A DNA stretch of 32,000 nt from Candidatus Omnitrophota bacterium (GTDB lineage: Bacteria > Omnitrophota > Gorgyraeia > 2-01-FULL-45-10): assembly GCA_023818895.1 (NCBI GenBank), contig JAMWCX010000001.1, positions 569,789 through 601,788 of the forward strand, in the 5' to 3' direction. Positions 1 to 32,000 of this stretch are shown here, piece after piece (position 1 is the first letter of the stretch; each line of letters opens with the position of its first letter). The translations under genes and the position numbers were made by a program. The notes below the pieces were generated by a model. The model did no database searches. It was given only the letters and a program-made list of their open reading frames with translations, and was not told the origin of the DNA.

Positions 1-155
1 GAAGCACTACGAGTAGCTAATGAATCCGCCCTGAAAGATTGGAACTTTACGGCGTCGCAACCGGCATCGCGAGCCACATCTATAAGCGTCTTTGCGGTCC
101 TTACAGAACCGTTATGATTGACTCCGATCTCCGCAACTATGAATATCTTGCTCAC
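1..155 (-). CDS. neuB: Nonulosonic (sialic-acid-like) acid synthase, NeuB/LegI/PseI family; 5' end only, continues past the left window edge
   Basis: Not in the supplied ORF track because it is truncated. The minus-strand frame from GTG at 155-153 (GAGGG purine run 7-11 nt upstream) reads MSKIFIVAEIGVNHNGSVRTAKTLIDVARDAGCDAVKFQSFRADSLATRSA. This matches the conserved NeuB-family N-terminus (IAEIGxNHNG ... GADAVKFQ). It overlaps the 3' end of the upstream acetyltransferase ORF by 44 nt in another frame. Confidence 0.8.
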   Translation of the reverse strand, partial: MSKIFIVAEIGVNHNGSVRTAKTLIDVARDAGCDAVKFQSFRADSLATRSA

Positions 156-795
156 TTTTTTCCCTCGCAGGGATACCAAAGACGGTACATCCGTCGCTCA
201 CGTCCCTTGTCACGACTGCGCCAGCTCCTACAGTAACGAACCTTCCTATTTTCAGACCCTGAAGAACAATTGCACCAATGCCGATATGGGAACATTCACC
301 TACTCTTACTCCACCGGCAAGTACTGAACCTACGGAAACATGAACGTGGTCCTCGATATAGCAGTCGTGCTCAATTACGGCCGCCGTGTTAACAATGACA
401 TTCTCGCCCACCGTGCAGTTAGCTTGTATAACGGCACCCGCCATAACCTGCGTGCCACTTCCTAGCCTGGCGCTTTTTGCAACAATAGCACTCTTATGCA
501 CTATCACTGGTATATCAAAATCATTTCGCAACCTTTCAAATACCTCTTTTCGCCTGACTGATGCCTTTACCGTACCTATGCCTATAGCAAGGAGCGGCAC
601 ACCTTTTTTGCCGAACATTCGACCAAGCGCACTTTCATCTCCAAGGACAGGATATCCAAGCACCTTATCCGACGTCTTCCTGTTAGGATCTATAATACCG
701 GCAACAGCGTACACACCCATTGAGAGCACTGCGTCCAAGAGCACCTTAGCGTGTCCACCACCCCCTACTATGACAACATTTTTTCTTTTATTCAT
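112..795 (-). CDS. Sugar N-acetyltransferase, NeuD/PglD/LegH family (left-handed beta-helix)
   Basis: The ORF track gives 112-813 with TTG at 813. I prefer ATG at 795, giving MNKRKNVVIVGGGGHAKV. An N-terminal Rossmann-like GGGGHAK segment is followed by hexapeptide repeats (VGENVIVNTAAVIEHDCYIEDHVHVSVGSVLAGGVRVGECSHIGIGAIV). This is the typical PglD/NeuD architecture. Confidence 0.85.
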   Translation of the reverse strand: MNKRKNVVIVGGGGHAKVLLDAVLSMGVYAVAGIIDPNRKTSDKVLGYPVLGDESALGRMFGKKGVPLLAIGIGTVKASVRRKEVFERLRNDFDIPVIVHKSAIVAKSARLGSGTQVMAGAVIQANCTVGENVIVNTAAVIEHDCYIEDHVHVSVGSVLAGGVRVGECSHIGIGAIVLQGLKIGRFVTVGAGAVVTRDVSDGCTVFGIPAREKSEQDIHSCGDRSQS

Positions 796-824
796 GTTTG
801 TCCGTAATAACAAAATAAGAGAGC

Positions 825-1532
825 TTATTTTTTATATATCGAGATTAAGTAAAAGTTATGCGGCATCACCGCATTCTTAATGAGCCGCTCTCCATTACAT
901 ATCTCGGTCCATGTTTTTATCGGGTCTTTACTCTTTGGTATATCAAACGGAATGCTAAATTTATCAAACGATGAGGATGCGACATCTTTGTTCTCCCTAA
1001 AATACTGTTCATAGGAATATCTAGAAAATGTATTGTATCCTGTATGCCAAAGCCGTTTCTCGTCTTCTGAATACCTATACCGTATCAGGCAGTCAACCGG
1101 ATAATCATTAACACGGGTAAAGATCGCTACCATGCCACCTTTCTTAGTTACCCTCAGCAATTCGTCGATTACCTTATCGAACCTGTCAAAAAAACCTATC
1201 GTACCCATGCAGGTGGTAACATCGAAACGCTGATCGTCAAGGCACATAGACCTTACATCGCCTAATACAAATCTGCATTCCTTTATCCTTGCCCGTCCTT
1301 CGCGTACAAGGACTTCGTCACAATCAAGCACCGTTATGTCAATATCACCGAATCTATGCCTAATATAGCTGGCAAACGCTCCTGTCGCTCCACCAACATC
1401 CAGCAGCGACCACCCTTTCCTGTTCTTTATAAAGTCCTGTATCTTGTCCCCCACTACCTTAAAATAATGCTTTGGTTTGCTAGGATCCGCTTTGAGAAGA
1501 CAGCCGGTCCTTTTATAATATGCTCCCTGCAT
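825..1532 (-). CDS. Class I SAM-dependent methyltransferase
   Basis: ATG at 1532. SAM-binding motif I is LLDVGGATGAFAS, followed by the acidic loop VLDCDE and a later GGMVAIF segment. It overlaps the upstream aminotransferase by 20 nt. Confidence 0.8.
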   Translation of the reverse strand: MQGAYYKRTGCLLKADPSKPKHYFKVVGDKIQDFIKNRKGWSLLDVGGATGAFASYIRHRFGDIDITVLDCDEVLVREGRARIKECRFVLGDVRSMCLDDQRFDVTTCMGTIGFFDRFDKVIDELLRVTKKGGMVAIFTRVNDYPVDCLIRYRYSEDEKRLWHTGYNTFSRYSYEQYFRENKDVASSSFDKFSIPFDIPKSKDPIKTWTEICNGERLIKNAVMPHNFYLISIYKK

Positions 1533-2745
1533 TTACTACCGCCTTTCTTCCCAGACAAATCTGCTCTTTACTAACCCTCCTACTAAGCCTTTCTTTCGCA
1601 AAAAAACTGGCAATCGTTGAAACAACTCGGTGTATATCCGATTCTTTCAGGTCTACGCTGCAAGGCACGTTTATGCATGTCTCGTATACTTCTACAGCAT
1701 GCTCAACCCTATAAGACATGTATCTTCGGTACATAGGCAGTGTATTGATGGGATTCCAGACAGAACGTACTTGTATACCCATTGTAGTCAGGTATTTCAT
1801 AAGCGGTTTTTTGCACCCCCGTGGTAACCTGATAGTATAAAACCAGAAATTGCTCTTCACTGTAGGCGTATCTTCCCATATTAATTCCACCTTATCTAAG
1901 CCAGACAACAACCTTCTATAAAGACGCGCGTTATCGCGCTTTATCTTTATGTACTCATCGAGTTTCTCCATCTGCGCCACGCCCATAGCGGCCTGGATAT
2001 TAGTAAGACGGTAATTATACCCTATCTCATCATGGTAATATTCAAAAGAATCCGTCCTAGCCTGCGTCGTAAGATGCCTAACCCTGGAGGCAATTTTCTC
2101 GTCATCGGTGACAACCATGCCACCTCCGCCTGTAGTTATTATCTTATTACCGTTGAAAGAAAGACACCCGCATCTGCCAAATGTCCCTGTCTTCTTGCCT
2201 TTATATACAGACCCAAGGCTCTCCGTCGCATCCTCTATGATATCTATCTTCCGATCTGAACATACACGAACTAGTTCATCCATATCGGCCGGATGACCAA
2301 AGACATGGACCGGAATAACAGCCGCTATTCTTTTCCCGCTTCTGATGTTGTAGGTAAAACCGTCATTTCCTATACGGGTCTTTTCCCTTAAAAAACGGGC
2401 AGTCTTTTTTATGTCAATGCAAAAAGTCCGGGGATCGCAATCCATGAAAACTGGATCTGCGTTACAATATCTTACTGCATTTGCAGTGGCTACGAAGGTA
2501 ACCGCAGGCACTATCACTTCTTCGCCCGCCTGCACACCGCAGGCTACCAGACTTACGTGCAACGCTGCGGTACCGTTCACCGTAGCAACCGCGTATCGGC
2601 TACCCAAATACCCAGCCACACAACTCTCAAAGCGTCTGACGTATTCTCCAGTCGAGGACACCCAACCGCTATCAAGACATTCCTTGATATACTTCCATTC
2701 GTTTCCCCTTATGACAGGGGTAGATATGGGAATCTCTTTCTTCAT
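1513..2745 (-). CDS. PLP-dependent sugar aminotransferase, DegT/DnrJ/EryC1/StrS family (LegC-like)
   Basis: The start ATG sits in an ATGA overlap with the upstream stop. DegT-family landmarks are GNEWKYIKECLDSGWVSSTGEYVRRFE, TVNGTAALHV, and the PLP-lysine context LSFNGNKIITTGGGGMVVT. It lies immediately downstream of a LegB-like dehydratase. Confidence 0.85.
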   Translation of the reverse strand: MKKEIPISTPVIRGNEWKYIKECLDSGWVSSTGEYVRRFESCVAGYLGSRYAVATVNGTAALHVSLVACGVQAGEEVIVPAVTFVATANAVRYCNADPVFMDCDPRTFCIDIKKTARFLREKTRIGNDGFTYNIRSGKRIAAVIPVHVFGHPADMDELVRVCSDRKIDIIEDATESLGSVYKGKKTGTFGRCGCLSFNGNKIITTGGGGMVVTDDEKIASRVRHLTTQARTDSFEYYHDEIGYNYRLTNIQAAMGVAQMEKLDEYIKIKRDNARLYRRLLSGLDKVELIWEDTPTVKSNFWFYTIRLPRGCKKPLMKYLTTMGIQVRSVWNPINTLPMYRRYMSYRVEHAVEVYETCINVPCSVDLKESDIHRVVSTIASFFAKERLSRRVSKEQICLGRKAVVNAGSIL

Positions 2746-3740
2746 ATAGCGTATAGTCCTGCTTTATGCGGCAGCATCTTTCCTTCAGCGCGAAACCACT
2801 CCACTGTTCTTACTATACCATCTTCGAGGGAGCATTGTGGCTTCCAGCCCGTAAGTGAACAGATAAGAGTATTATCTCCGAGCAACCTTTCCACCTCGCT
2901 ACCTTTAGGCCTTACCCTGCACTCTTCCGTTTCAATATCCTTATCGGACCCCAACGCCTTTAATATTAGCCGGGCTAGATCCTCTATCGATACCTCTCTT
3001 CCACTACATATATTTATCGTCTTGCCTATAGCCTGGTCGTTTTCCGCCACTGCTATTAGTCCTGTGCATATATCGCTCACGTAGTTCATATCCCTAAATG
3101 TATGAATATTGCCGAGTCTTATAGCCTTCTGGTCCGAAAGGGCCTGCGTAATTATTGTGGGTATGATGGCTCTTACGGATTGCCTCGGCCCATAAGTATT
3201 GAACGGCCTGGCTATTACCACGGGAAGACCGAAACTCAGATAGAAAGATTCCGCCATCTTGTCCGCCGCTATCTTTGTCGCGGCATACGGTGACTGCGCC
3301 TGCAGAGGGTGCTTTTCATCGATCGGTACGTATAAAGCACTGCCGTAGACTTCTGATGTCGACGTCATGATAACCCTGTCCACACCCAGATCCCTCGCGG
3401 CTTGCAGGATATTCAGTGATCCCCTGATATTGGTGTCGACGTACGAATCGGGCGAGTGGTACGAAAATGGTATCCCTATCAATGCGGCAAGGTGGAATAC
3501 GACGGCAGAGCCCTTCATGGCTTTTTTTACACCGTGCGGGTCCTTGGCATTACCCATGTGCACATCGATTTTTTTCACAATCGACTTTGGCAACGTATCG
3601 AGCCACCCCCATGAGTTAAAGGCGTTATAATAAACAAAAGCACGCACGTCAGCTCCTTTATCCAGCAGATGCTCGACCAGATGACTGCCTATGAAACCAC
3701 ATGCGCCCGTCACGAACACCTTCTTACCACTAAGTCTCAC
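2742..3740 (-). CDS. NAD-dependent nucleotide-sugar 4,6-dehydratase, extended SDR (LegB-like)
   Basis: GTG at 3740 follows a strong GAGGAGG Shine-Dalgarno sequence. It has the Rossmann motif TGACGFIGSHL and the catalytic STSEVYG and YAATK (YxxxK) motifs. The segments NSWGWLD and YHSPDSYVDTN resemble LegB-type dehydratases as I recall them. Confidence 0.85.
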   Translation of the reverse strand: MRLSGKKVFVTGACGFIGSHLVEHLLDKGADVRAFVYYNAFNSWGWLDTLPKSIVKKIDVHMGNAKDPHGVKKAMKGSAVVFHLAALIGIPFSYHSPDSYVDTNIRGSLNILQAARDLGVDRVIMTSTSEVYGSALYVPIDEKHPLQAQSPYAATKIAADKMAESFYLSFGLPVVIARPFNTYGPRQSVRAIIPTIITQALSDQKAIRLGNIHTFRDMNYVSDICTGLIAVAENDQAIGKTINICSGREVSIEDLARLILKALGSDKDIETEECRVRPKGSEVERLLGDNTLICSLTGWKPQCSLEDGIVRTVEWFRAEGKMLPHKAGLYAI

Positions 3741-4560
3741 TTTTCCTCCTCATTATCATATTGTTAAAAAAGAAATTTGAGCCGGCTATGAATGGACCAT
3801 TAACCAGCTCCACTTTATTATAAGAAAGTCTTCGCCTTGTATGCGCATCGATAACCATGACACCTGCCTCTTCTGCTATTAGCTGGCCCGCGGCTGTATC
3901 CCACCCCATAGTTGGACCCAATCTGGGGTAGACATGTGCTTTTCCCTCAGCAATAAGACAGAACTTGAGAGAGCTGCCAACTAAGATATATTCAACCCTA
4001 TTATATAGTTTTTTAAGGCCTTCGACATACTCCTCGAGCTCTTCCGTCCTGTGCGATCGGCTCACTGCTACAATTATCTTATCTTTGGGAGTTTCATCGC
4101 TGATGCGGATCCGCTTCCTCCTACCATCCCCAGCTATCTTGAAAGCACCCCTATCCTTTAACGCATAATATATATCTCTATAAATAGGCACGCCAATCAC
4201 GCCCACAACCGGTGCACCATCCTCTATAAGCGCAATATTGATGGTGAACTCCTCGTTACGCATTATAAATTCCCTCGTACCGTCGAGTGGATCGATAAGC
4301 CAAAAAACGTTCCAATTCTGTCGTACTTCGTACGGAACAACGTCCTCTTCCGAAACAATCGGTATGTTAGGATAGAGTGCCTTAAGCCTGCTCTCTATAA
4401 AATCATGAGACAACTTATCCGCAAGTGTAAGAGGTGACGAATCCTCTTTGTGCTCCACGAAAAGCTCTTGCCTTCTATAGATATCTAGAATCTTCTCCCC
4501 CGCTTCACGGGCGATTGTTATTACCTCCTCGACTTTTATACCTCCAAAGGTGTCCCGCAC
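3730..4560 (-). CDS. cysQ: 3'(2'),5'-bisphosphate nucleotidase (PAP phosphatase), inositol monophosphatase superfamily
   Basis: GTG at 4560 has AAGAGGG upstream. Metal-binding and substrate motifs are VSEED, WLIDPLDGTREF and WDTAAG. It lies directly downstream of the PAPS synthase. Confidence 0.85.
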   Translation of the reverse strand: MRDTFGGIKVEEVITIAREAGEKILDIYRRQELFVEHKEDSSPLTLADKLSHDFIESRLKALYPNIPIVSEEDVVPYEVRQNWNVFWLIDPLDGTREFIMRNEEFTINIALIEDGAPVVGVIGVPIYRDIYYALKDRGAFKIAGDGRRKRIRISDETPKDKIIVAVSRSHRTEELEEYVEGLKKLYNRVEYILVGSSLKFCLIAEGKAHVYPRLGPTMGWDTAAGQLIAEEAGVMVIDAHTRRRLSYNKVELVNGPFIAGSNFFFNNMIMRRKSET

Positions 4561-4561
4561 C

Positions 4562-6346
4562 TTATACCCTCTTCCCGCTCTTCGCCCAGTCTATCAACAC
4601 ATCCACAACTTCTTTCCTCGAGAATTCCTCCGGAGGATAGATGCCGCCTTTGAGCATCTCGCGCACTTTTGTACCGCTGAGCTGAAGATGGTCTGTCTTA
4701 GGGTCATGCGGGCAGGTTTTAGCGCTCGCCATATTGCCGCACTTTTTGCAGAAAAACGAATTTTCAAACCTGAGCGGCGTTATGCCCAGCCTGTCGGCCA
4801 GCGAAACAAGCAGTTCCTGCGCTTCATACGGCCCGTAGTAATTGCCAACTCCGGCATGATCGCGCCCTATAATGAAATGCGTGCAGCCGTAATTCTTCCT
4901 GATGATCGCGTGATTGATCGCCTCGCGAGGTCCCGCATATCGCATAAATGTGGGCAAGACAGAAACAACTATCCTATCTTTATTGAAATAGCCTTTTATA
5001 AGAGCCTCGTAACACTTCATCCTCACCTTCGCAGGAATATCGTCCGGTTTTGTCTCTCCCACGAGCGGATGGATAAGTACCCCGTCGACCGATTCAAGGG
5101 CGCATTTTATGAGATATTCATGGGCTCTGTGTATCGGGTTTCTGGTCTGGAACGCGACTATGCTTGACCAGCCCCTTCTCCTGAACTCCTCGCGCGTCTG
5201 CCGGGGATCGAGATAATACGAGGATTCTACTTCGCTTCTGCGAGGACGGTTTAAGAGTGTTATCTCGCCCCCCAGGAAAGTATCTGGGCCTTCCATTATA
5301 ATCTTAGCACCCGGATGGGCCTTGTCATCAGTTTTAAACACGCCCTTACAAAAAGCGTCCTTGGGATAGGTGAATTTATCCGAGACTTTCATCAAAGCTA
5401 TGGGCCTTCTGTCGCTCTCGCAGAGGACTATCTCTTCACCGATACTTATTAATCGGGCATCTCTGTCATCTACAGTTAGAATTATTGGCACGCCCCACGC
5501 CAAACCATCTGAAAGAGCGCATCTCTTGACCACTTCATCCACATCATCTCGGTTCATGAAGCCGCTCAATGGGCTGAACGCGCCCACAGCCAGCATCTCA
5601 CAGTCCGAAAGGAACCGGTCCGCTACGATCACCTGCCTGAGAGAGCTTGCCTTTCTCAATAAAGCCTCTCTATCACCGCCTTCAGCTACTCTATTAATTA
5701 AGCCCCTCGAACCATATGGGGCATTAACACCCTTGGCCATTTTCCTGCCTATTATGTTATGCGCGATAAGATAATCGACTATCTTATCGACCGACTCATG
5801 CACCGAAAGCTTATCGGTCTCTATTATGATTTCTGGCTTGACTGGTTCTTCATACGGATCGCTTACACCAGTAAACCCTTTTATTTCTCCCGCCATGGCT
5901 TTCTTATAAAGGCCTTTGGGGTCACGTTCCATGCAAATAGATACCGGACACTTGATATATACCTCTACAAATTCTCCATCCTTCAGAAGGTCCCTGACAG
6001 CCTTTCTGTCAGCGCGGTAAGGTGATATGAAAGCTGTTATAGGAAGAATTCCTGCATCCACAAATAATTTAGCAACCTCTCCTATTCTACGTATATTCTC
6101 TTCGCGGTCCTCTTTGCTAAAACCCAAATTTTTATTAAGTCCATGCCTCACATTGTCACCGTCAAGGACATAAGTATGCACACCCATATTATTAAGAAAA
6201 TGTTCTAGCTCATTCGCTATCGTCGACTTTCCCGATGACGGCAAGCCCGTAAACCAGATAACGCATGACTTGTGATCCTTTATCGCCTGGCGCCTCTCCC
6301 TACCCACCTTGTGCTCATGCCACACCACATTCGTCGCTTTCGACAT
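4562..6346 (-). CDS. sat/cysC: Bifunctional adenylylsulfate kinase (N-terminal) / sulfate adenylyltransferase (C-terminal), i.e. a PAPS synthase
   Basis: Residues 1-200 are APS kinase: P-loop [54 protein letters not shown]. Residues from about 205 to 594 are ATP sulfurylase: [59 protein letters not shown]. It is a single uninterrupted ORF with ATG at 6346. Confidence 0.92.
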
Positions 6347-6349
6347 TTC

Positions 6350-6910
6350 CTATACCCTTTCTTCGATGCGAGCGGCGGTATTGCCATTTAACAAAACGCC
6401 CTCTGTCGATTTATTCAGCACCATCGCGTTAAAAAGATCGAACATGCTCTGCGCCTGCTCATAGAGATCCTTTATCTTGGCAAGCCTCTCTTTAAATACC
6501 TTTACCGACTCATCTCCGGACTCGTCTCCATTAACGACGGTATCTATCATATTGCTTGATGATCTTATCATATCATTCACAGCCGATAACCTGCTGTTCG
6601 CCATCGACTTGATCCTGTCTTTTATGACTTTCGAGATGTCAATATCAGCCTCATAATAATCCTTCCTCGAGCCTTTGACCCAGACCCGCCGCACCGCGCC
6701 ATACCTTTCAAGAGCCCTTATATTTACGCTGGCGCTGGCCTTGCTTATCTTGAGCCTCTTCACCATGTCATCGAGAGACATCGCGCCGTTGTGAAAATAC
6801 AAGACAACATAGAGTTGGGCCATTATGTTATTGAGCCCGAACTTACTGCATATCTGGTTCACTCTGTCCAGGAAAATATCCTGCGCTTCGATCAGTTTTT
6901 CCTTAGTCAT
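6350..6910 (-). CDS. Winged-helix transcriptional regulator, GbsR/MarR family
   Basis: ATG at 6910 has an AAGGA Shine-Dalgarno sequence. The wHTH core is MSLDDMVKRLKISKASASVNIRALERYGAVRRVWVKGSRKDYYEA. A long helical C-terminal region follows, as in GbsR-type regulators. Confidence 0.75.
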   Translation of the reverse strand: MTKEKLIEAQDIFLDRVNQICSKFGLNNIMAQLYVVLYFHNGAMSLDDMVKRLKISKASASVNIRALERYGAVRRVWVKGSRKDYYEADIDISKVIKDRIKSMANSRLSAVNDMIRSSSNMIDTVVNGDESGDESVKVFKERLAKIKDLYEQAQSMFDLFNAMVLNKSTEGVLLNGNTAARIEERV

Positions 6911-6925
6911 ATACCGTCCTTTAGG

Positions 6926-7645
6926 TTATTTTTTACAAACTATTATAAGATTCCGCGATAAAACTTTGGGCCTGTCCATACCTTTTTCAAGATAATATAT
7001 GTAGCCAAGCACTGCGGTCCACATGCTATTAAGTAGCCACCATAATATCCTCTGCGGCCGCATCTTCAGTCTTATCCTATCGCCACGAATAGCTATATCT
7101 TTAAATCCGGCTATCCTCATCACCTGATAAGCGCTTCTTTCGGTAAACCCTATCTCGTGAGTAAAATCAGTGTATCTTTGGAAAAGGCCTGAGACGCACG
7201 CCATGTTCGGCGTGGCAACCAGCAGGATTCCGCCTGGCTTAAGTGAACCATAAATCGAACGCAGATTCTCCCATAACTCGTCCTTGGAAAAGTGTTCGAT
7301 TACCTGATTCATCACGATAAGATCGTAGTGATTTGATCTTGAGTCAAGGTAGGAAGGGATAGAGGATATTACGCTTCCCTTAATGCCGAGCTTATTCAAG
7401 AACCTTATCTGCTCTTCGCCAATATCTATGCCTTCGATATTCGAGTATCCCTTATCTTTGAGATAGAAAAGAAACTGGCCTGCCCCGCTCCCTATCTCAA
7501 GTATATTAGCATGCTTATCGGAAGGCAAAAGATCTCTGAAATTGTCGGAATATGATTCCTGATTAGACCTGTGAACCTTTGTGTAATCGGAATCCTTACT
7601 ATCTATATAATTGCTGAATATAGCTTTCTTATAGTTATCGCCCAT
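6926..7645 (-). CDS. Class I SAM-dependent methyltransferase
   Basis: ATG at 7645. Motif I is ILEIGSGAGQFLFYL, followed by the acidic residue in IEGIDIGEE and the post-II motif LKPGGILLVATPN. It is the first gene downstream of the 7.7 kb promoter. Confidence 0.8.
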   Translation of the reverse strand: MGDNYKKAIFSNYIDSKDSDYTKVHRSNQESYSDNFRDLLPSDKHANILEIGSGAGQFLFYLKDKGYSNIEGIDIGEEQIRFLNKLGIKGSVISSIPSYLDSRSNHYDLIVMNQVIEHFSKDELWENLRSIYGSLKPGGILLVATPNMACVSGLFQRYTDFTHEIGFTERSAYQVMRIAGFKDIAIRGDRIRLKMRPQRILWWLLNSMWTAVLGYIYYLEKGMDRPKVLSRNLIIVCKK

Positions 7646-7687
7646 ATATAGTTAGGGTTGTTTTTAACGTTTAGAACGTTTTGAAAG

Positions 7688-7716
7688 ATGATAACAATTA
7701 AAGTTATAAATGTCAA
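7688..7716 (-). promoter_or_regulatory. Sigma70-type promoter driving the methyltransferase, regulator, PAPS and nonulosonic-acid genes
   Basis: The minus strand reads TTGACA (7716-7711), a 17-nt spacer, then TATCAT (7693-7688). It sits in the 111-nt AT-rich gap between the radical SAM stop (7757) and the ATG at 7645. Confidence 0.6.
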
Positions 7717-7756
7717 TATAATTTTAACATTATTTAGGGAGGCGAAGCACCGCTAT

Positions 7757-9214
7757 TTATCTAACGCGTATTGCGGATTTTAGGTATTTAAATAGGTGAA
7801 AACAACTCAAATTCCGATATATGGCATGCAGGCCGAGATTGGATCTACATTTTGAAACTAGGGTCTTTGCCATAAGGCTAATCATGGACCTCTTCCCTTT
7901 ATAGACATTGTAATCAAACCATATAAAAGCTTTCTGTATCTTCTTTTTAGGAAAGCCTGGCAGGTCAAGAACTGCCCTACATCTTTCAAGCTCTCCTGAA
8001 GGCATGCGTTTAAATAGTTCCTTTTTACGACATACATCATAGAGTTCAGTGCCAGGATAAGGGAAGAATATATGGGCAAACGCTTGATCGGGAAGACATT
8101 CTCTGTTTATCGCGATAGTCTCTTTAAAATCATCATAAGTTTCGCCGGGAACGCCTATTAGATTATAGAAACATATCTGGATACCATTTTGCCTCGCCAA
8201 GGCAACCGCCCTGATAATATCATTGTTCGAATAATCGCGCTTAAGAATCTCTTTCCTGACCCTTTCGCTTCCGGACTCAACACCTATCCTTACGAATTTA
8301 AAATTACTCTCCTTGAATAACCTAAAAAGGCCTGAGAAGTCTGATCCGCGAGTTATCCTGAGGTTTGTACCGAATAAAAGAGGCTCTTTTAGTGATGTAT
8401 TAACTCTCTTCAAGGCTGCACATAATTCATTCGCCCATGCCATATTCGCTCCTATCGTCTCAACCTCAAGGTATATTTGCTTTGTCCGCGGATAAGCTTC
8501 CACGATCATAATTATCTCCCGCGTGATGCTATCCACTGATCTAAGCCTCACGTATTGTCCTTGGGCAATCCTCCTGAGCGCGTGATTACAGCAATATGTA
8601 CAGTTAAAAGGGCATCCGCGGCCGAGAAGAACGGGTTGCCATACATCTTCTCCACCGGATATCCATTTTTGCCATATCTCTCTATCCGGAAAAGGCAGAC
8701 CGTCGATATCCTTTACGAAAGGCCTTGGATCGTTTTTTTCTACGGTGCCGTCTTTCATGATCCATAGATTTTGGATTCCCGATGGCACTTCTACCTTCGT
8801 AAGTTTCTCAGCAAGCTCAAGAGTGGGATATTCGCCTTCACCTATACATATGGCGTCGAAGGGTCCTTTCGCCACATCATTGGGGTTGAGCGATGCATGG
8901 GCTCCGCCGACAAGGAGGAAAAGTTCCGGATGCATTTTCTTTATATAACGGGCCGCTCTCTCGATAAAAGTATATTCACTAGTCACGGCGGTAAAACATA
9001 CTAGCCGCGGATTAAACCTCCCTATCGCCTCTTGGATCAATGTCTTATTGCGAGCTCCCAGCATCCTGCTCAATACCACAAGCTCTGTATTATGCCCTTG
9101 CGATTTTAGAAGAGACGAGATGTAAGAGATACCAAACTGCATCTGTTCTGGTGTGCGTAGAGGGCGCTCGGGGGTTGCAATATCATCTACTGAAGATATA
9201 AACAATATATGCAT
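7757..9214 (-). CDS. B12-binding-domain radical SAM enzyme (class B type)
   Basis: The N-terminal cobalamin-binding-like Rossmann segment is MHILFISSV...LVCFTAVTSEY...LLVGGAHAS. The radical SAM cluster motif is GRGCPFNCTYC (CxxxCxxC). The TIM-barrel segment is GVESGSERVRKEILKRDY...NLIGVPGET. Confidence 0.85.
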   Translation of the reverse strand: MHILFISSVDDIATPERPLRTPEQMQFGISYISSLLKSQGHNTELVVLSRMLGARNKTLIQEAIGRFNPRLVCFTAVTSEYTFIERAARYIKKMHPELFLLVGGAHASLNPNDVAKGPFDAICIGEGEYPTLELAEKLTKVEVPSGIQNLWIMKDGTVEKNDPRPFVKDIDGLPFPDREIWQKWISGGEDVWQPVLLGRGCPFNCTYCCNHALRRIAQGQYVRLRSVDSITREIIMIVEAYPRTKQIYLEVETIGANMAWANELCAALKRVNTSLKEPLLFGTNLRITRGSDFSGLFRLFKESNFKFVRIGVESGSERVRKEILKRDYSNNDIIRAVALARQNGIQICFYNLIGVPGETYDDFKETIAINRECLPDQAFAHIFFPYPGTELYDVCRKKELFKRMPSGELERCRAVLDLPGFPKKKIQKAFIWFDYNVYKGKRSMISLMAKTLVSKCRSNLGLHAIYRNLSCFHLFKYLKSAIRVR

Positions 9215-9217
9215 ATT

Positions 9218-10759
9218 TTATAATTCGTATTTTAGGCGTGGCATAAGCCATTTTATCATATCTCTTAATAAAGAAGAATCTACTAATTCTACCCAATGCC
9301 GCTTATCATAAGGGAGAGAAGCTATATATGAATTTATGTCTTTTGCATAAAGTTTGAAAAAAATATCATTCTCTGAATCATATACGTTTATATATTCTCT
9401 CACCTTGACTGCAACATCGTTTTTTGGATCCGTAAGCAGATTATTGGCGTATCTGAATCGTTTATTGATAGGCGCGCCGTTCGCCTGAGAACCTAACGCA
9501 AGTTTAAGAACAGGGCCGGCAACAAACCATTCTGACAAAAACTCGATATTGCTGATGGGGCCATATTTACTGTACTGGTTACCCGATATAAACACAATCT
9601 CAGTTCCGGAATATTCGGCAAGGTCCTTGTTGGTGGCCATTTTGTATATCACTGTTTGCTGATGCGCATTCCATGATTTCCAGTGGTCGGAGATGCCCAA
9701 GATAGCAAAAATGAAGACCGCAAATAAGATAGCGCCAATGCCGCGCTGAATACCAGCTGAGATGAGAAGATATACAACAAGTAATGACCCAAATATAGTT
9801 ACCCTGTTACCCAGATTAAAAGCCAATTGGGGATAAAGGCCGGTTAGCGATAACACAAAAAATGCCACTATAGTCATTGAAAAAAGGCTAATAACAAGTT
9901 TCGTATCACGCTGTGTTTTTATTTTATCATAAAGTGCGTAATAAAGACCCGTCGCCAATATACCGATAATAACCGAGGCAAATGAAAGTTGTACAAACGC
10001 ATAATATATTTTCAACCACATTGAAGGACCCAAGACCGCATCTGCAAATGTAGCCATTTGTAGAACAAACTGTTTAGCAATAGCATAAATATCGGGCCTC
10101 TTAGGAAGCTTGTCTACGCCTATACTAATCATCTTAGCTATTACGATATAATAGACACTATAGATAACGTTAGGAACTAGAAGAATAAAGCCTTTCTTTA
10201 CATGTCTATTTAAGACGGTTAGCATGAAAAGCGATACAGCTATTATAGGTGACCCATATGATATAAATGAACCTGCAAGCGCAAATAGGAATGCCGGCAG
10301 TAATTGCTCCCGCTGTGTCAAATAGTATGCATAGAGATAGAAAGCAAAAGATAATGTAAGATACTGAACCATGAACCAATACACGGTAGCATCGTGAGAC
10401 GGGAAAAACAAGAACAGAAAGGAGGTTAGCATTGCGTGTCGGTTATCAAAATAGATGCTGAAGAATTTGTAGATCATATAAAATGCCAAGATAATGTATA
10501 CGATCTTCATCACATCGACAATAGCGCTATTCCAGGCAGAGGCAAAATAATACCAGATATAGAAAAAGAGGTAGCCTAATGGAGTCTCGACGAACATTAT
10601 GGTGCTTTTTGGGATAAGCGCTTCTACAAGACTCTTCCCTTTAACACGTGCCATGATATCAAAATCATCGGACACCAGACCTGTATTCCACATGAGATAT
10701 ATGATAATAAGAATATATAAGAGGAAAAGAAGGCGATCGTTCTTCCAGAGATTTTCCAT
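9218..10759 (-). CDS. Polytopic inner-membrane protein with a C-terminal soluble domain; putative GT-C-fold (ArnT/PMT-like) glycosyltransferase
   Basis: The ORF track gives 9218-10798 with TTG at 10798. ATG at 10759 (MENLWKND) avoids a 32-nt overlap. By eye there are more than 10 hydrophobic helices. An acidic SDDFD motif follows the first helix, where GT-C enzymes carry their DxD/DDx motif. The last 150 or so residues are hydrophilic. The fold assignment is inference. Confidence 0.5.
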   Translation of the reverse strand: MENLWKNDRLLFLLYILIIIYLMWNTGLVSDDFDIMARVKGKSLVEALIPKSTIMFVETPLGYLFFYIWYYFASAWNSAIVDVMKIVYIILAFYMIYKFFSIYFDNRHAMLTSFLFLFFPSHDATVYWFMVQYLTLSFAFYLYAYYLTQREQLLPAFLFALAGSFISYGSPIIAVSLFMLTVLNRHVKKGFILLVPNVIYSVYYIVIAKMISIGVDKLPKRPDIYAIAKQFVLQMATFADAVLGPSMWLKIYYAFVQLSFASVIIGILATGLYYALYDKIKTQRDTKLVISLFSMTIVAFFVLSLTGLYPQLAFNLGNRVTIFGSLLVVYLLISAGIQRGIGAILFAVFIFAILGISDHWKSWNAHQQTVIYKMATNKDLAEYSGTEIVFISGNQYSKYGPISNIEFLSEWFVAGPVLKLALGSQANGAPINKRFRYANNLLTDPKNDVAVKVREYINVYDSENDIFFKLYAKDINSYIASLPYDKRHWVELVDSSLLRDMIKWLMPRLKYEL

Positions 10760-10766
10760 AAATGCG

Positions 10767-12140
10767 TTAGCCACAGTTAAAATATTTATCGTAAACAATG
10801 GCGGGAATGATATTCATGGTAGACAATATCCTGAGAGGGATCCTAAGGAAGCGTATATAGTTATAGCTTGTGGGATAGTCACGAAATGTCTTTGGCGCCT
10901 CCGCGAGGTATTTGTCCAGCTCTTGGTGAGTTATTCCGAGTCTCTTTATACATAGATCAATGATTTTTGGATCCTCGATCACATATACTTCCTTAATTCT
11001 CTCTAATGCTTCGTCTCTGGTCATCTGGCCGGATCTTACTAGAGCCGAATAATTGAACTTACGCCTATCTATATTAAACTTTACACGCAGCACATACGTC
11101 ATGAGACTTTGGTAGAGATCATCGTAATAATGAGCTCCCGGATATCTCCACCCCAGTTCTGTTATAATGGCTTCCGCTTCCTTTCTCACATAGGGTACAT
11201 AATACAATAGAGGTACGGTTCTGATACCTCTCAATACAATATAATAAAAAAGATGCCATAGATCCAAATTAAACCCCGGGTCTTCGGGCTTCCATCTTCT
11301 CAGCTTAACAGAGCCAAATCTGCGATGAACATTTTTAAGATACTTACCGTCTAGGTAATTCCATACGAGCGGGCTGATACCTTCAGTTCTGAATGACTGG
11401 CCGATTATAACATATTTTACACCTTCCCTGAATGCGGTTCCATACAGAGCACTTGCTATTCCTATATCCGTCCCCTCCTCCATATCTGGAGTGGAAGCTT
11501 TTAGAAACGCTATCTTAATATCTTTCGATTCACGCCAATCAGAGGTAATGGTCCTAAGTTCCACCCCAAGCTTTGCGGTAACCTTACGCATATTCTCGCC
11601 GGCAACCGGATTACCGAATCCGTCATTAAAATGAACCGCTAACGGCCGTAATCCGAATTTCTTCAGGAGATATAGTGTGTAGGTACTGTCACGTCCGCCA
11701 CTCAAACCAGCGATACAATCAAACTTCTTCCCTATTCCGGATTTTTTTATCTTTTCGATGATCCTCGCAAGCTTACGGCTACCTTCAGGGGTAAGCGGAT
11801 ACGCGCGTTCCAATCTGTCGTGAAGCTTGCAGAAATTGCATTCACCCTTTTCATCAAATGTTACTCCTGGGACGGTAGTATCTATTATGCACCGCGAACA
11901 GACCTTATATTCCATTTTTGAGATAACCTTTTTTTGCAACATCTCTCCGATTTGCACGCCTTTTTCTATCCTGCGAGGTGCTTCAAATTCGGCAACAACA
12001 AGCTCCCCCGCAAACTCATTGTAGGGCCCCTGGGCGACAACGCCTTGACGACCGACAGCAAGTGAGCATCCTACCATCTTCCTGCCTTCGTATGGCCCAC
12101 CAACAATATAACCAACGCTAGTAGCACTAATAATTACCAA
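10767..12140 (-). CDS. N-acetyl-sugar amidotransferase (WbuX/PseA/WbpG family, PP-loop ATP pyrophosphatase); its 5' end encodes the C-terminal part of a C-N hydrolase domain
   Basis: From M76 (ATG at 11915) it has the zinc ribbon CSRCIIDTTVPGVTFDEKGECNFC, the PP-loop FDCIAGLSGGRDSTY, and the later YYDDLYQSLMTYVLRVKFNIDRRK...SGQMTRDEALE. Residues 1-55 (VIISATSVGYIVGGPYEGRKMVGCSLAVGRQGVVAQGPYNEFAGELVVAEFE) continue the nitrilase-superfamily fold of ORF 12134-12745. This frame stays open upstream to 12203. The tracked start is a TTG with no Shine-Dalgarno sequence. Confidence 0.85.
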   Translation of the reverse strand: MVIISATSVGYIVGGPYEGRKMVGCSLAVGRQGVVAQGPYNEFAGELVVAEFEAPRRIEKGVQIGEMLQKKVISKMEYKVCSRCIIDTTVPGVTFDEKGECNFCKLHDRLERAYPLTPEGSRKLARIIEKIKKSGIGKKFDCIAGLSGGRDSTYTLYLLKKFGLRPLAVHFNDGFGNPVAGENMRKVTAKLGVELRTITSDWRESKDIKIAFLKASTPDMEEGTDIGIASALYGTAFREGVKYVIIGQSFRTEGISPLVWNYLDGKYLKNVHRRFGSVKLRRWKPEDPGFNLDLWHLFYYIVLRGIRTVPLLYYVPYVRKEAEAIITELGWRYPGAHYYDDLYQSLMTYVLRVKFNIDRRKFNYSALVRSGQMTRDEALERIKEVYVIEDPKIIDLCIKRLGITHQELDKYLAEAPKTFRDYPTSYNYIRFLRIPLRILSTMNIIPAIVYDKYFNCG

Positions 12141-12745
12141 ATTGTAAAGGTTCGCGAGAGTAAAATATGGCTTAAACCACTTTTCTCCATACGGGTCTCT
12201 CCTTCAATAACCGAATAATCGACGGTCCACGATGATGGTGTGAGGATTATTTGCGGCATCATCCTGGCCAGAGCATGGCCTATATGTAGGCTGTCAAGAT
12301 AATTATCCGCGCATATATTTACACCTACAATGCCAAAGGGTGTTTCCACAACTAACAGGCGGTCACCAACAGCATAATATTCCTGCTCTACCACGAGAAG
12401 ATTGATTTTATGATATTTTAGAACAATCTCGCCTGCGGAATCAATTAATATGGCAGTATTGTACACGCGGTCTCGTGCTTTCTCTGTCAGACCTGCGCAA
12501 ATATAAATACCTTTCTGGCTAGCTAATTTACAAAGCCTGTCGCTATAAGGCCCTGGCACTGGCTTGGCTTCTGTCTTTGCGCTCGGATGGGTCCACCCAA
12601 GATCAAGTGTTTCCGGCAAAAGCACGATATCACACTCTTTCTGAACCGTTTCCTTTATCATTTCTTCAGCACGATTGAGGTTACGGTCGGGCTCACCCCC
12701 TTCGACTAGCAATTGCCCCATACCTACTTTGATATATTTTCCCAT
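12134..12745 (-). CDS. Carbon-nitrogen hydrolase (nitrilase superfamily) domain, N-terminal two thirds; frameshift-separated from the downstream amidotransferase frame
   Basis: ATG at 12745. A candidate Glu-Lys-Cys triad is present: DIVLLPETL, VLKYHKINL, GVNICADNY. The ORF ends in non-family sequence (ETRMEKSGLSHILLSRTFTIW) after PSSWTVDYSVIEGE. The -1 frame continues with family-like DPYGEKWFKPYFTLANLYNLVIISATSVG. Confidence 0.8.
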   Translation of the reverse strand: MGKYIKVGMGQLLVEGGEPDRNLNRAEEMIKETVQKECDIVLLPETLDLGWTHPSAKTEAKPVPGPYSDRLCKLASQKGIYICAGLTEKARDRVYNTAILIDSAGEIVLKYHKINLLVVEQEYYAVGDRLLVVETPFGIVGVNICADNYLDSLHIGHALARMMPQIILTPSSWTVDYSVIEGETRMEKSGLSHILLSRTFTIW

Positions 12746-12752
12746 ATACCTT

Positions 12753-13142
12753 TTAGACCTTATACATAAAATACAGACTAGCTATGATCATTACTATAGC
12801 TAATATCTTATTCATATTAACAATTTCGCCGAAGAATATGGATGCAAGAGGCACAATTATAAGACAACTCAGCGCTATCGACAAGGGATATGCGATAGAT
12901 AGCTCCATGCGAGAAAGAGCGATGGCAGATGGTAAAGGCGCTAGCAAGAACAATATCAATCCAACAAGTGCAAGAGGTGACATTACAAGCGATAGAAAAT
13001 AACCCGTAACCGCCTTGACCGAGGTTAGTTCAATAGCCCCCAATTCGTTCATCCTCATCTTTACAAAATACATACCCAGCACGTTCATGATGACACCTAC
13101 TAATATCATCCCCCAGGTTAGCAAAAAAGTTTTCAAATTCAT
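12753..13142 (-). CDS. Small 4-TM DMT/EamA-type membrane protein; putative polyprenyl-phosphate-sugar flippase (ArnE/ArnF/GtrA-like role)
   Basis: 129 aa with four hydrophobic helices. It has an EamA-like tail (SIAYPLSIALSCLIIVPLASIFFGEIVNMNKILAIVMIIASLYF). Its start overlaps the stop of the ArnC-like GT2 (TGATG). Confidence 0.6.
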   Translation of the reverse strand: MNLKTFLLTWGMILVGVIMNVLGMYFVKMRMNELGAIELTSVKAVTGYFLSLVMSPLALVGLILFLLAPLPSAIALSRMELSIAYPLSIALSCLIIVPLASIFFGEIVNMNKILAIVMIIASLYFMYKV

Positions 13143-14086
13143 CAGTATCTCCCCTCTTTGGCATCGGATCTTTTCTCTATAAAAAAAAGTGGCCGTCTGC
13201 GGGATTCATCTAGATTGCGCCAAAGATATTCACCTATCACGCCCAGCGCGCTTGTATGCACACCGCATACCATCAGTATGGCGACTACTATAATCGCCGT
13301 CCCTGATACTACTCGGCCAACTACGGTCATTATGAACAAAATTAGCGCACAGAATATGCCGATAATCGTAATTGCCACACCTATCAGCATAATCAACATG
13401 AGCGGTAGGCCTGAGAAGGCAATAATCCAATCTCTGGCTAAAACGAGACGGGTCCGCAGACTCCACTTAGACCTCCCTGAGAGGCGATGGCGCCGCTTAT
13501 AACTTACGGAATCGTGCGTAAAGCCTGCCCATGCTATTAGGCCAAAAAGAGATGTATTTCGCTCGACGCAAGCATTGACGGCATTGACCATTTCTCGATC
13601 AAGGAAAAAGAAGTCAGCCTTTGAGAAATCTATCTTCTTGTATTCGGTGCGCGCAAGCCAGAAGAGGAGGCGATAAAAAATCTCGGCAGGCTTTCTGATG
13701 TGCCAGGGCTCTATTCTCCTGTCTTCCCTGAGCGCCCAAATCACAGAAGCGCCCTTTTTGTATTTTTCCAACATCTCTTTAAGCACTGAAGGATCATCCT
13801 GACCATCACCTGATATGCATAGCACCGCGTCACCCGTAACTTCACGCAAACCTGCCCGCAGAGCAGTATGACTGCCAGAGCGTCTGCTTAACCTAATACA
13901 CATAAGCCGCGAATCCTTAATGGCATCTACAACCTCATATGTTCTATCTGAAGAATGGTCATCAACAACTACCATCTGTACCTGTTTAATATCGGAAATA
14001 TTATCGACCATTGAAAATATTTCTTCAATTACTGAAACGATATTATCAGCTTCATTGTACACTGGTATTACAATAGATAAATTCAT
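13142..14086 (-). CDS. GT2 polyprenyl-phosphate glycosyltransferase (ArnC/GtrB/DPM1-like)
   Basis: Motifs are LSIVIPVYNEADNI, VVVDDHSSDRT, ISGDGQDDP and SGRSKWS. Two C-terminal TM helices are followed by GVIGEYLWRNLDESRRRPLFFI, which closely parallels the ArnC/GtrB C-terminus. The start is in an ATGA overlap. Confidence 0.85.
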   Translation of the reverse strand: MNLSIVIPVYNEADNIVSVIEEIFSMVDNISDIKQVQMVVVDDHSSDRTYEVVDAIKDSRLMCIRLSRRSGSHTALRAGLREVTGDAVLCISGDGQDDPSVLKEMLEKYKKGASVIWALREDRRIEPWHIRKPAEIFYRLLFWLARTEYKKIDFSKADFFFLDREMVNAVNACVERNTSLFGLIAWAGFTHDSVSYKRRHRLSGRSKWSLRTRLVLARDWIIAFSGLPLMLIMLIGVAITIIGIFCALILFIMTVVGRVVSGTAIIVVAILMVCGVHTSALGVIGEYLWRNLDESRRRPLFFIEKRSDAKEGRY

Positions 14087-20485: not shown

Positions 20486-20498
20486 CACATCAACCTTC

Positions 20499-31982: not shown

Positions 31983-32000
31983 CAATACGCCCGCTATGTC

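Follow-up and report, generated by a model that had tools for sequence, protein, structure and literature searches.

The window, by which we mean the whole 32,000-nucleotide stretch of Omnitrophota DNA that was analysed, encodes a predicted bifunctional PAPS synthase and a predicted PAP phosphatase (CysQ) within a large cell-surface glycan locus. We favour, with moderate confidence, the reading that the two genes form a dedicated PAPS-supply cassette heading a legionaminic-acid (Leg) sub-operon and serving sulfation through an ordinary sulfotransferase encoded elsewhere in the genome. In the proposed route, the ATP-sulfurylase domain would adenylate sulfate to APS and the fused APS-kinase domain would phosphorylate APS to PAPS. 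A cytoplasmic PAPS-dependent sulfotransferase would then place the sulfate on a sugar, either in the glycan itself or in its lipid- or nucleotide-linked precursor, and release PAP; CysQ would hydrolyse PAP to AMP and phosphate and so relieve product inhibition. The mechanism itself is already known and is textbook material.

The PAPS module and its sub-operon

Every long ORF in the window lies on the minus strand. The features around the PAPS module, listed from upstream to downstream, are as follows.

7688-7716, minus strand: promoter-like site TTGACA-17-TATCAT with an extended -10 TG (consensus match only, 11/12)
7660-7677, no strand assigned: palindrome GTTTTTAACGTT/AACGTTTAGAAC, lying shortly after the promoter-like site
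6926-7645, minus strand: SAM-dependent methyltransferase (Methyltransf_23, Pfam), the first gene past the promoter-like site
6350-6910, minus strand: winged-helix regulator (weak TrmB/MarR and CudC/GbsR-like matches)
4562-6346, minus strand: bifunctional PAPS synthase, 594 aa, with an N-terminal APS kinase, a PUA-like domain and a C-terminal ATP sulfurylase
3730-4560, minus strand: CysQ, 3'(2'),5'-bisphosphate nucleotidase (PAP phosphatase), 276 aa, GTG start
2742-3740, minus strand: LegB-type NAD-dependent 4,6-dehydratase, GTG start with an AGGAGG Shine-Dalgarno sequence
1513-2745, minus strand: LegC-family aminotransferase (494 bits, cutoff 420)
825-1532, minus strand: SAM-dependent methyltransferase (Pfam), inserted between LegC and LegH
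112-813, minus strand: NeuD/PglD-family N-acetyltransferase in the LegH role (NeuD family 216 bits, cutoff 161); the recorded form has 227 aa and starts at 795
1-155, minus strand: start of NeuB/LegI, the nonulosonic-acid synthase, cut by the left window edge

Judged by its sequence, the 4562-6346 product is a bifunctional PAPS synthase. Pfam matches were obtained to APS_kinase (PF01583, residues 26-175, 235 bits), PUA_2 and ATP-sulfurylase (PF01747, residues 376-586, 326 bits), and both catalytic domains scored above their NCBIfam cutoffs (adenylyl-sulfate kinase NF003013, 302 bits against 163; sulfate adenylyltransferase NF003166, 516 bits against 387). The catalytic motifs are complete: Walker A GLPSSGKST and LDGDNVR are both intact in the kinase domain, as are QxRNPxHxxH and IGRDHAG (GRDHAG) in the sulfurylase domain. 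The adjacent 3730-4560 product falls within the CysQ family and is predicted to act as a PAP phosphatase. It matched Inositol_P in Pfam (177 bits) and the NCBIfam CysQ equivalog TIGR01331 (280 bits, cutoff 229), scored below the cutoff of the stricter E. coli-type model NF008182 (249 against 379), and contains the metal-binding IMPase motifs DPLDGT and WDTAAG.

The genes are closely packed. The regulator stop lies 3 nt from the PAPS synthase start, and the PAPS synthase stop 1 nt from the CysQ GTG. The CysQ stop codon (TAG, 3732-3730) falls inside the LegB gene, whose GTG at 3740 is preceded by AGGAGG, giving an overlap of 11 nt. Adjacent genes of the sub-operon overlap by as much as 44 nt or are separated by no more than 29 nt. 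An earlier note on this DNA had placed the PAPS synthase and CysQ between a regulator and a LegB-like gene with an 11-nt CysQ/LegB overlap; families, gene order and overlap were all confirmed. Genes for making PAPS and for removing PAP are placed within a glycan biosynthesis operon.

The tight spacing and overlaps, together with the promoter-like site upstream of 6926-7645, suggest a single transcript running through the methyltransferase, regulator, PAPS synthase, CysQ, LegB, LegC, the second methyltransferase, LegH and LegI and onward. The promoter-like site was the best minus-strand candidate in positions 1-12000, where the total count of such sites was not above that in shuffled sequence. 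It sits in the sole sizeable intergenic gap of that half of the window (7646-7756) and is likely the start of the sub-operon containing the PAPS module. The winged-helix regulator probably controls the PAPS/Leg transcript, with the palindrome as its possible operator.

Downstream of CysQ, LegB scored 471 bits with TIGR04180, marginally below the cutoff of 475. Contigs of a sister assembly are 99.4-100% identical to the window. One of them, the 100% identical L167, carries NeuB and, beyond it, a PtmE-like NTP transferase, LegG (Epimerase_2), a formyltransferase, a PIG-L deacetylase and LegF (CTP_transf_3). Across the window and L167 the predicted legionaminic-acid cluster is complete (LegB, LegC, acetyltransferase, LegI, LegG and LegF), with LegB as its marginal score. 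A uronic-acid sugar pathway is also encoded in the window.

Sulfur genes at the locus and in its relatives

The region examined comprised the window and 9.3 kb of flanks from a sister assembly, ~41 kb in all. Pfam sulfotransferase families gave no match at E<=0.01 among the 29 window ORFs, and the only match to a 5'-PSB regular expression across the window was out of frame and in no predicted protein. A custom sulfotransferase HMM and phmmer --max, run over six-frame segments of at least 50 aa from the window and flanks, gave a best E of 0.15, which is noise; as a control, the HMM recovered the L024 sulfotransferase, outside its training set, at 2e-15. A word-seeded search of limited sensitivity detected no ortholog of the L164 sulfotransferase (see below) on the 732,676-bp contig. 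No sulfate importer adjoins the module or lies within the ~41 kb. Neither the PAPS_reduct family (PAPS/APS reductase) nor a sulfite-reductase family was found in the window, the flanks or eight loci of the close clade, and no cysteine-synthesis gene adjoins the module in the window or in those eight. The locus is without the sulfotransferase of a self-contained glycan-sulfation locus in ~41 kb, and without the linked reductase of an assimilatory sulfate-reduction operon.

The eight close-clade loci (L003, L083, L092, L094, L100, L162, L163 and L164) place the module in context. L164 is the closest relative (PAPS synthase 81% and CysQ 56% identical) and has the order regulator, PAPS synthase, CysQ, sulfotransferase, PseB-like SDR, DegT. 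Its sulfotransferase scored 65 bits with Sulfotransfer_3 and 48 bits with Sulfotransfer_1 and contains the motifs RSGTT and RDPRAIYNS. L163 has the order sulfate permease, APS kinase, Sat, Wzx-like protein, CysQ, Sulfotransfer_2 (24.5 bits, cutoff 22), methyltransferase, Sulfotransfer_3 (53 bits); the Wzx-like flippase homolog has no Pfam match of its own and is 60% identical to a weak Polysacc_synt protein of L162. No sulfotransferase was found in the other six of the eight, within the 7-22 kb available. In L003, CysQ is followed directly by LegB, as in the window, and the two PAPS synthases are ~70% identical. Regulator orthologs precede the PAPS genes in L003 (47%), L092 (42%) and L164 (41%, the alignment covering 49 residues of a 73-aa C-terminal fragment).

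The module abuts sugar-nucleotide or glycan-assembly genes in seven of the eight loci and nonulosonic-acid genes in five, of Leg type in L003, L094 and L162 and of Pse type in L164 and L092. Its neighbours in L100 are a WecA-like glycosyltransferase and a GT9; in L083 just an AsnB fragment precedes the module, and a porin and a transporter come after it. Dedicated anion importers are encoded with the module, of the NMT1-type ABC kind in L003, L094 and L100, TauE in L092 and CitMHS/TrkA_C in L162 and L163, with one in L083 too. Methyltransferase genes recur beside the module. More widely, of 141 tallied loci with a Sat/PAPSS homolog (a count that leaves out contigs of sister strains but includes duplicate copies of one contig), only 8 have a CysQ neighbour, and the characterised ones are glycan or sulfotransferase loci. 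Among them is L079 of Bacillus taeanensis, which combines a Wzx flippase, three sulfotransferases, rhamnose genes, Sat, a Na/sulfate-type permease, CysC and CysQ; the CitMHS/TrkA_C importer type also matches Na_sulph_symp there.

Because relatives carry sulfotransferases, glycan genes adjoin the module in seven of eight loci and no cysH or sulfite reductase accompanies it, the module can be viewed as a portable PAPS-supply cassette for glycan sulfation. With ordinary sulfotransferases right after the same module in close relatives, a normal glycan-sulfation kit is most likely, its transferase being a canonical Sulfotransfer_1/2/3-family enzyme encoded elsewhere; the product glycan would most likely be sulfated. 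The earlier note's proposal of a PAPS unit wired into a glycan operon for a sulfated product fits the sulfotransferases that follow CysQ in L164 and L163 and the lack of a nearby cysH or sulfite reductase.

A rather unlikely alternative is general or assimilatory sulfate activation, in which these would be the only sat/cysC genes of the cell, feeding a remote PAPS reductase for cysteine, and their placement among glycan genes an accident of compaction or a sign of dual use. CysQ is needed in PAPS-dependent assimilation in E. coli too, a regulator (and anion importers in the relatives) accompanies the module as in cys operons, a distant fused homolog (53%) stands alone amid housekeeping genes, and ~41 kb are without a sulfotransferase. 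The E. coli-type cysDNC/cysH/cysQ set likewise combines PAPS synthesis with CysQ. Here, however, no cysH, cysIJ, sir or cysteine-synthesis gene is near, the module is translationally coupled to glycan genes through the 11-nt LegB overlap, canonical sulfotransferases directly follow CysQ in two relatives, and the module stands beside glycan genes in nearly all close loci. The adjacency of Sat and CysQ is moreover rare and coincides with glycan or sulfotransferase loci.

It is distinctly less probable that the cassette is orphaned, an L164-like ancestral order having lost its sulfotransferase and left a PAPS module that is functional but purposeless, or a remnant of minor use. Where L164 and L163 have a sulfotransferase, the CysQ/LegB overlap leaves no slot here, and this closed order recurs in L003. 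Yet both enzymes keep all their catalytic motifs, no sulfotransferase ORF remnant is detectable, and a closed order common to organisms whose PAPS synthases are only ~70% identical implies long-term retention under selection.

The sugar that may carry sulfate

A sulfated nonulosonic acid (NulO) is speculative. The repeated placement of the module beside NulO genes is real: in the Omnitrophota/PVC clade, Leg- or Pse-type genes repeatedly come directly after it, and in L164 the sulfotransferase gene is flanked by CysQ and the PseB-like gene. That the module is tied specifically to NulO biosynthesis, yielding an O-sulfated legionaminic or pseudaminic acid through a remote canonical sulfotransferase or an unrecognised family, nonetheless seems improbable; we found no description in the literature of these O-sulfated acids for bacterial NulOs. 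In the documented precedent, the N-glycan of Halorubrum sp. PV6 and HRPV-1, a sulfated (or phosphorylated) uronic acid occurs with N-formyl-legionaminic acid, and the sulfate (or phosphate) is on the neighbouring uronic acid (PMC6137143). Our locus resembles that system in its Leg genes with a formyltransferase (in L167) and its uronic-acid pathway, with PAPS supply in the window. It differs in that the Halorubrum system is archaeal N-glycosylation whose leg cluster has no reported PAPS genes or sulfotransferase (PMC6137143), while the Omnitrophota glycan is predicted from genes. By analogy with the archaeal glycan, a sulfated uronic acid alongside N-formyl-legionaminic acid is more likely than a sulfated nonulosonic acid.

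Candidate proteins and known systems

The earlier note, having seen neither PAPS-binding motifs nor a recognisable sulfotransferase in the window, proposed profile searches of its proteins and flanks and offered two options, a gene outside the window or an unrecognised family among three proteins. Pfam, motif scan and custom HMM agree with its observation, the searches giving none in ~41 kb, and the first option is the better supported, given the canonical enzymes of L164 and L163. The second was not supported by examination of the three proteins.

9218-10798, minus strand: glycosyltransferase of the GT-C fold (ArnT/PglB/ALG9-like); its first loop contains an invariant DD, and the C-terminal domain is beta-rich
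19793-20485, minus strand: membrane-anchored transglutaminase-fold (cysteine-protease-like) protein, from its predicted structure
25513-26832, minus strand: radical SAM/SPASM enzyme resembling BtrN, extended at the N-terminus by 147 aa

The 19793-20485 protein was rejected for its transglutaminase-like cysteine-protease fold (pLDDT 93.7), and the C-terminal domain of 9218-10798 as part of a GT-C glycosyltransferase; on the model of ArnT and PglB, this domain is expected in the periplasm. At 147 aa, the extension of 25513-26832 falls short of every sulfotransferase domain (Pfam sulfotransferase profiles have 216-255 positions), and it showed no PSB motif, no P-loop and no Pfam match at E<=10. 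A hidden sulfotransferase family in the window, be it this extension or a methyltransferase- or acetyltransferase-like protein acting non-canonically, would suit the six related loci likewise without a nearby canonical enzyme and the methyltransferase genes recurring next to the module, but is very unlikely given these three assignments, the confident assignment of all remaining ORFs to families and the lack of an unassigned protein family common to the loci without a sulfotransferase.

Polysaccharide-sulfation loci with their own PAPS supply are known from rhizobia, where NodPQ (sulfate activation) works with the sulfotransferases NodH, LpsS or KpsS. Like these and L079, the window combines a sulfate adenylyltransferase with an APS kinase and a PAP phosphatase amid genes for sugar nucleotides and glycan assembly, but it has no sulfotransferase or sulfate importer in ~41 kb, and its sulfurylase is of Sat type and fused behind the kinase, unlike the CysD/CysN(C)-type NodPQ. 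With the cassettes of L164, L163 and L003 it has in common the regulator, the kinase-then-sulfurylase order, CysQ and the NulO or glycan genes immediately downstream. L164 and L163, unlike the window, carry Sulfotransfer_1/3 and Sulfotransfer_2/3 genes, respectively, after CysQ, and L003, L163 and others have importers and separate kinase and sulfurylase genes where those of the window are fused.

If the glycan is sulfated, this locus would give the first indication from a genome that Omnitrophota, uncultured bacteria of the PVC group, have surface glycans bearing both sulfate and nonulosonic acids. With its regulator, importer, APS kinase, sulfurylase and CysQ, the conserved cassette is a convenient marker for finding sulfated-glycan loci in metagenomes, which matters because sulfotransferases vary widely and their genes often lie far away. 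The locus is also relevant to the reported co-occurrence, in environmental biofilms and granular sludge, of sulfated glycoconjugates with sialic-acid-like sugars (PMC10483923).

The fusion of APS kinase and ATP sulfurylase looks recent, because the two enzymes are encoded separately in relatives at 64-73% identity. Fused PAPS synthases with the kinase first are common in bacteria, with many matches of 560-600 aa at 94-98% coverage in Binatia, Chloroflexi and Gemmatimonadota. The domain order is identical to that of metazoan PAPSS1/2, in which an N-terminal APS kinase and a C-terminal ATP sulfurylase form a single polypeptide.

The PAPS module and its probable operon

The 32-kb window is filled by 29 minus-strand genes in an unbroken run with almost no intergenic space, and within this run the PAPS module and the legionaminic-acid genes apparently share one transcript. 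In the direction of transcription, the features around the module are:

7660-7677: palindrome GTTTTTAACGTT/AACGTTTAGAAC, directly downstream of a promoter-like site (7716-7688)
6926-7645, minus strand: methyltransferase, upstream of the PAPS module and beside the regulator
6350-6910, minus strand: winged-helix regulator with weak TrmB/MarR and CudC/GbsR-like matches
4562-6346, minus strand: PAPS synthase, 594 aa, with APS-kinase (N-terminal), PUA-like and ATP-sulfurylase (C-terminal) domains
3730-4560, minus strand: CysQ, 276 aa, inositol-monophosphatase family (CysQ equivalog model, 280 bits; cutoff 229)
directly after CysQ, minus strand: LegB-type gene (471 bits; cutoff 475)
after the LegB-type gene, minus strand: LegC (494 bits; cutoff 420)

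Past LegC come a methyltransferase and a NeuD/PglD-family acetyltransferase, after which NeuB begins and is cut by the window edge. The sulfurylase and kinase of the PAPS synthase gave NCBIfam scores of 516 (cutoff 387) and 302 (cutoff 163), respectively, and all catalytic signatures, GRDHAG among them, are present. CysQ carries the metal-binding motifs DPLDGT and WDTAAG, and its start lies 1 nt from the PAPS synthase stop. The CysQ stop codon TAG (3732-3730) falls inside the LegB-type gene, which starts with GTG at 3740 behind an AGGAGG; the two genes therefore truly overlap by 11 nt. Scores, motifs and start and stop positions fully bear out the earlier note, which had described a PAPS synthase and a CysQ overlapping the LegB-like start by 11 nt. 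The exact 594-aa sequence is missing from the protein collection, which includes CysQ, LegB and the regulator of the 732-kb contig. In the deposited annotation, the gene probably has another start codon or is flagged.

This half of the window has a single gap of any size, ahead of the upstream methyltransferase and the regulator. It contains the best sigma-70-like site of the minus strand within 1-12000, TTGACA-17-TATCAT with an extended -10 TG. This site and the palindrome are consensus matches and suggestive only; the adjacent GbsR/MarR-like regulator may use the palindrome as its operator. An Rfam scan of the window gave no match.

The window proteins map to a 732,676-bp NCBI contig. Four contigs of a sister MAG (Candidatus Omnitrophota bacterium, GCA_023818765.1) share 99.4-100% DNA identity with the window and extend it on both sides. 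The upstream flank (4.2 kb) encodes DegT, a GDSL-like hydrolase, a methyltransferase and AsnB; the downstream flank (5.1 kb) encodes NeuB, a PtmE-like nucleotidyltransferase, LegG, a formyltransferase, a PIG-L deacetylase and LegF.

Search for a sulfotransferase

A sulfotransferase of an unrecognised family inside the window had been one of two options put forward, and none of the searches supported it. Pfam sulfotransferase families at E<=0.01 matched none of the 29 window ORFs, Pfam at E<=10 gave no sulfotransferase match on the candidate segments, and NCBIfam found no sulfotransferase among the window proteins. Regular expressions for the PAPS-binding 5'-PSB and 3'-PB motifs returned no in-frame sulfotransferase motif; the single 5'-PSB-like match is out of frame in the regulator gene. 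A custom profile of 16 sulfotransferase sequences, run with HMMER filters off on all six-frame segments of at least 50 aa, reached at best 2.4 bits (E = 1.4), and it recovered a sulfotransferase outside its training set, from locus L024, at 2e-15 as positive control. A phmmer search of the same segments with a Sulfotransfer_2 protein from a related locus (L163) was also negative. When the search with sulfotransferase HMMs was extended to the sister-contig flanks, again no sulfotransferase was found, so that the span surveyed totals ~41 kb. In a search for orthologs of the sulfotransferase of another relative (L164), none of 12 matches lay on the 732,676-bp contig, which is weak negative evidence.

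Three candidates had been named within the window, and none of them was supported. The AlphaFold model of 19793-20485 (41 sequences, pLDDT 93.7) resembles transglutaminase-fold cysteine proteases (3kd4, 3isr, TglA, PNGase and PeiW/PeiP) and is not that of a P-loop sulfotransferase; the protein has an N-terminal membrane anchor and belongs to a well-conserved family of ~235 aa. The model of 9218-10798 (pLDDT 92, pTM 0.93) identified a GT-C glycosyltransferase, with matches of modest E-value (~2e-3) but probability 1.00 to enzymes such as ALG9, STT3/PglB and ArnT. Its family, ~520 aa long, is conserved end to end, with a DD in the first loop that is invariant; the C-terminal beta-rich domain, by analogy with ArnT/PglB, should be periplasmic, where PAPS would not be present. 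The N-terminal extension of 25513-26832 was excluded on size and motifs only: it has 147 aa as against the 216-255 positions of Pfam sulfotransferase profiles, contains no P-loop and matches no family at E<=10. The remainder of that protein is BtrN-like. PDB sequence searches with the proteins lacking a family assignment gave no informative match.

Related loci and the probable function of the cassette

Scans of genome, metagenome and protein databases yielded eight distinct loci with an APS-kinase/sulfurylase 64-81% identical to that of the window.

Gene content of the eight related loci
L164: regulator, PAPS synthase (fused, 81%), CysQ (56%), sulfotransferase, PseB-like SDR, DegT
L163: CitMHS/TrkA_C permease, APS kinase, Sat, Wzx-like, CysQ, Sulfotransfer_2, methyltransferase, Sulfotransfer_3
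L003: regulator, NMT1-type ABC importer, kinase, Sat, CysQ, LegB, LegC, LegH, NeuB, LegG...CMP-transferase
L094: ABC permease, kinase, Sat, LegB, LegC, LegH
L092: regulator, TauE, kinase, Sat, PseB-like, DegT, GFO oxidoreductase, CMP-transferase
L100: NMT1 ABC importer, kinase, Sat, epimerase, WecA-like GT, GT9
L162: Leg-type genes, permease, kinase, Sat, Wzx-like, methyltransferase, CysQ, GT2 fusion
L083: AsnB, PAPS synthase, porin, PBP-type ABC transporter

The L164 sulfotransferase (341 aa) scored 65 bits for Sulfotransfer_3 and 48 bits for Sulfotransfer_1 and has the motifs RSGTT and RDPRAIYNS. In L163, the Sulfotransfer_2 protein scored 24.5 bits (cutoff 22) and contains PKCGGTS, and the Sulfotransfer_3 protein scored 53 bits. 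On balance, we favour a portable PAPS-supply cassette for glycan sulfation, served by a canonical sulfotransferase encoded beyond the ~41 kb. Assimilatory sulfate activation is an unlikely reading: relatives have sulfotransferases in the corresponding slot, the glycan context is consistent, and cysH and sir genes are lacking at the surveyed loci; none of the eight related loci has a PAPS/APS reductase or sulfite reductase. Less likely than both readings are an orphaned cassette, which we consider doubtful, and a cryptic sulfotransferase within the window, which is very improbable. In the Campylobacter MeOPN pathway, a CysC homolog phosphorylates CDP-phosphoramidate; such a pathway is rejected here because the kinase shares its polypeptide with a bona fide ATP sulfurylase whose motifs are intact, and because a glutamine-kinase-like gene is lacking.

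The kinase/sulfurylase fusion looks recent, since the 64-73% relatives keep two genes and only the 81% group and the window have them fused. A fused PAPS synthase of 53% identity stands alone among housekeeping genes on a 1.2-Mb contig. A CysQ homolog lies nearby in only 8 of 141 fetched loci with a Sat or PAPS-synthase homolog, a tally that leaves out sister-strain contigs and counts duplicate copies of one contig. The only one of these 8 from a cultured organism, that of Bacillus taeanensis (L079), contains three sulfotransferases, rhamnose genes, Sat, a Na/sulfate-type permease, CysC and CysQ, and is, as predicted from these genes, a complete sulfated-polysaccharide locus. Rhizobial NodPQ with NodH/LpsS/KpsS is a known polysaccharide-sulfation system, and the parts and logic of the window match both this system and the B. 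taeanensis locus. For Pontiella, of the PVC group, sulfated exopolymers have been reported, together with glycan clusters that contain PF13469 sulfotransferases (PMC7356697). Particular to the present case are the Omnitrophota host phylum, the consistent coupling of the cassette to nonulosonic-acid (NulO) genes and the locus without a sulfotransferase.

Anion importers adjoin the kinase/sulfurylase in L003, L092, L094, L100, L162, L163 and L083, upstream everywhere except in L083, where the importer is downstream; none lies beside the PAPS module in the window. The types are NMT1/TauA-type ABC, TauE/TSUP, CitMHS+TrkA_C (in B. taeanensis also matching Na_sulph_symp) and PBP_like_2 ABC with a porin. 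Of these, the NMT1-type systems are candidates for unrecognised sulfate importers. Pfam gave no match to the Wzx-like protein of L163, which is 60% identical to that of L162, itself only a weak Polysacc_synt match.

The possible sulfated sugar and other genes of the glycan locus

Two observations speak slightly for a sulfated NulO: PAPS modules repeatedly adjoin NulO genes, and in L164 the sulfotransferase lies between CysQ and the PseB-like gene. In the literature searched, we found no description of sulfated bacterial NulOs, nor of sulfation or NulOs in Omnitrophota. Sulfate on a neighbouring sugar is the more conservative expectation, given the formyltransferase among the Leg genes, the diacetamido-uronic-acid-type pathway encoded in the locus (WbpA/B/D/E-like genes, 14083-19709) and the precedent of Halorubrum sp. 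PV6, in whose glycan a sulfated (or phosphorylated) uronic acid occurs together with N-formyl-legionaminic acid (PMC6137143). The formyltransferase and the PIG-L-family deacetylase lie between LegG and LegF on the sister contig (L167:3904-5447), ~3.2-4.7 kb past window position 1; the pair suggests an N-formylated legionaminic-acid derivative, as in PV6.

The WbpA/B/D/E-like pathway adjoins an Arn/Gtr-like set (9218-14086) for periplasmic lipid-linked sugar addition, in which the GT-C protein (9218-10798) is joined by:

12753-13142: EamA/ArnE-like multi-helix membrane protein, 129 aa
13142-14086: GT2 with C-terminal membrane helices

Of the 256 profile positions, only 13-177 are matched by the CN_hydrolase ORF 12134-12745, and the WbuX amidotransferase ORF 10767-12140 opens with ~78 residues that resemble the missing C-terminal nitrilase-fold part in another frame. 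From the reading frames, 10767-12745 looks like a single CN_hydrolase-WbuX fusion broken by a frameshift, with a putative junction at ~12150-12190; the split is also present in the sister assembly. If true, WbuX would have a nitrilase-type glutaminase as its partner in place of the HisH/HisF-like WbuY/WbuZ, which would be unusual.

The 903-aa protein 20499-23210 fuses a B12-binding radical-SAM domain (class-B methyltransferase-like) to a GT4 glycosyltransferase, and a second, stand-alone B12 radical-SAM gene lies at 7757-9214. Two BtrN-like radical SAM/SPASM enzymes are encoded at 25513-26832, whose unassigned N-terminal extension is Rossmann-like, and 30948-32000. Members of the transglutaminase-fold membrane family (window 19793-20524) share 50-63% identity, with one named match from Omnitrophota; in L092, a member (3207-3992) lies directly upstream of the PAPS-module regulator.
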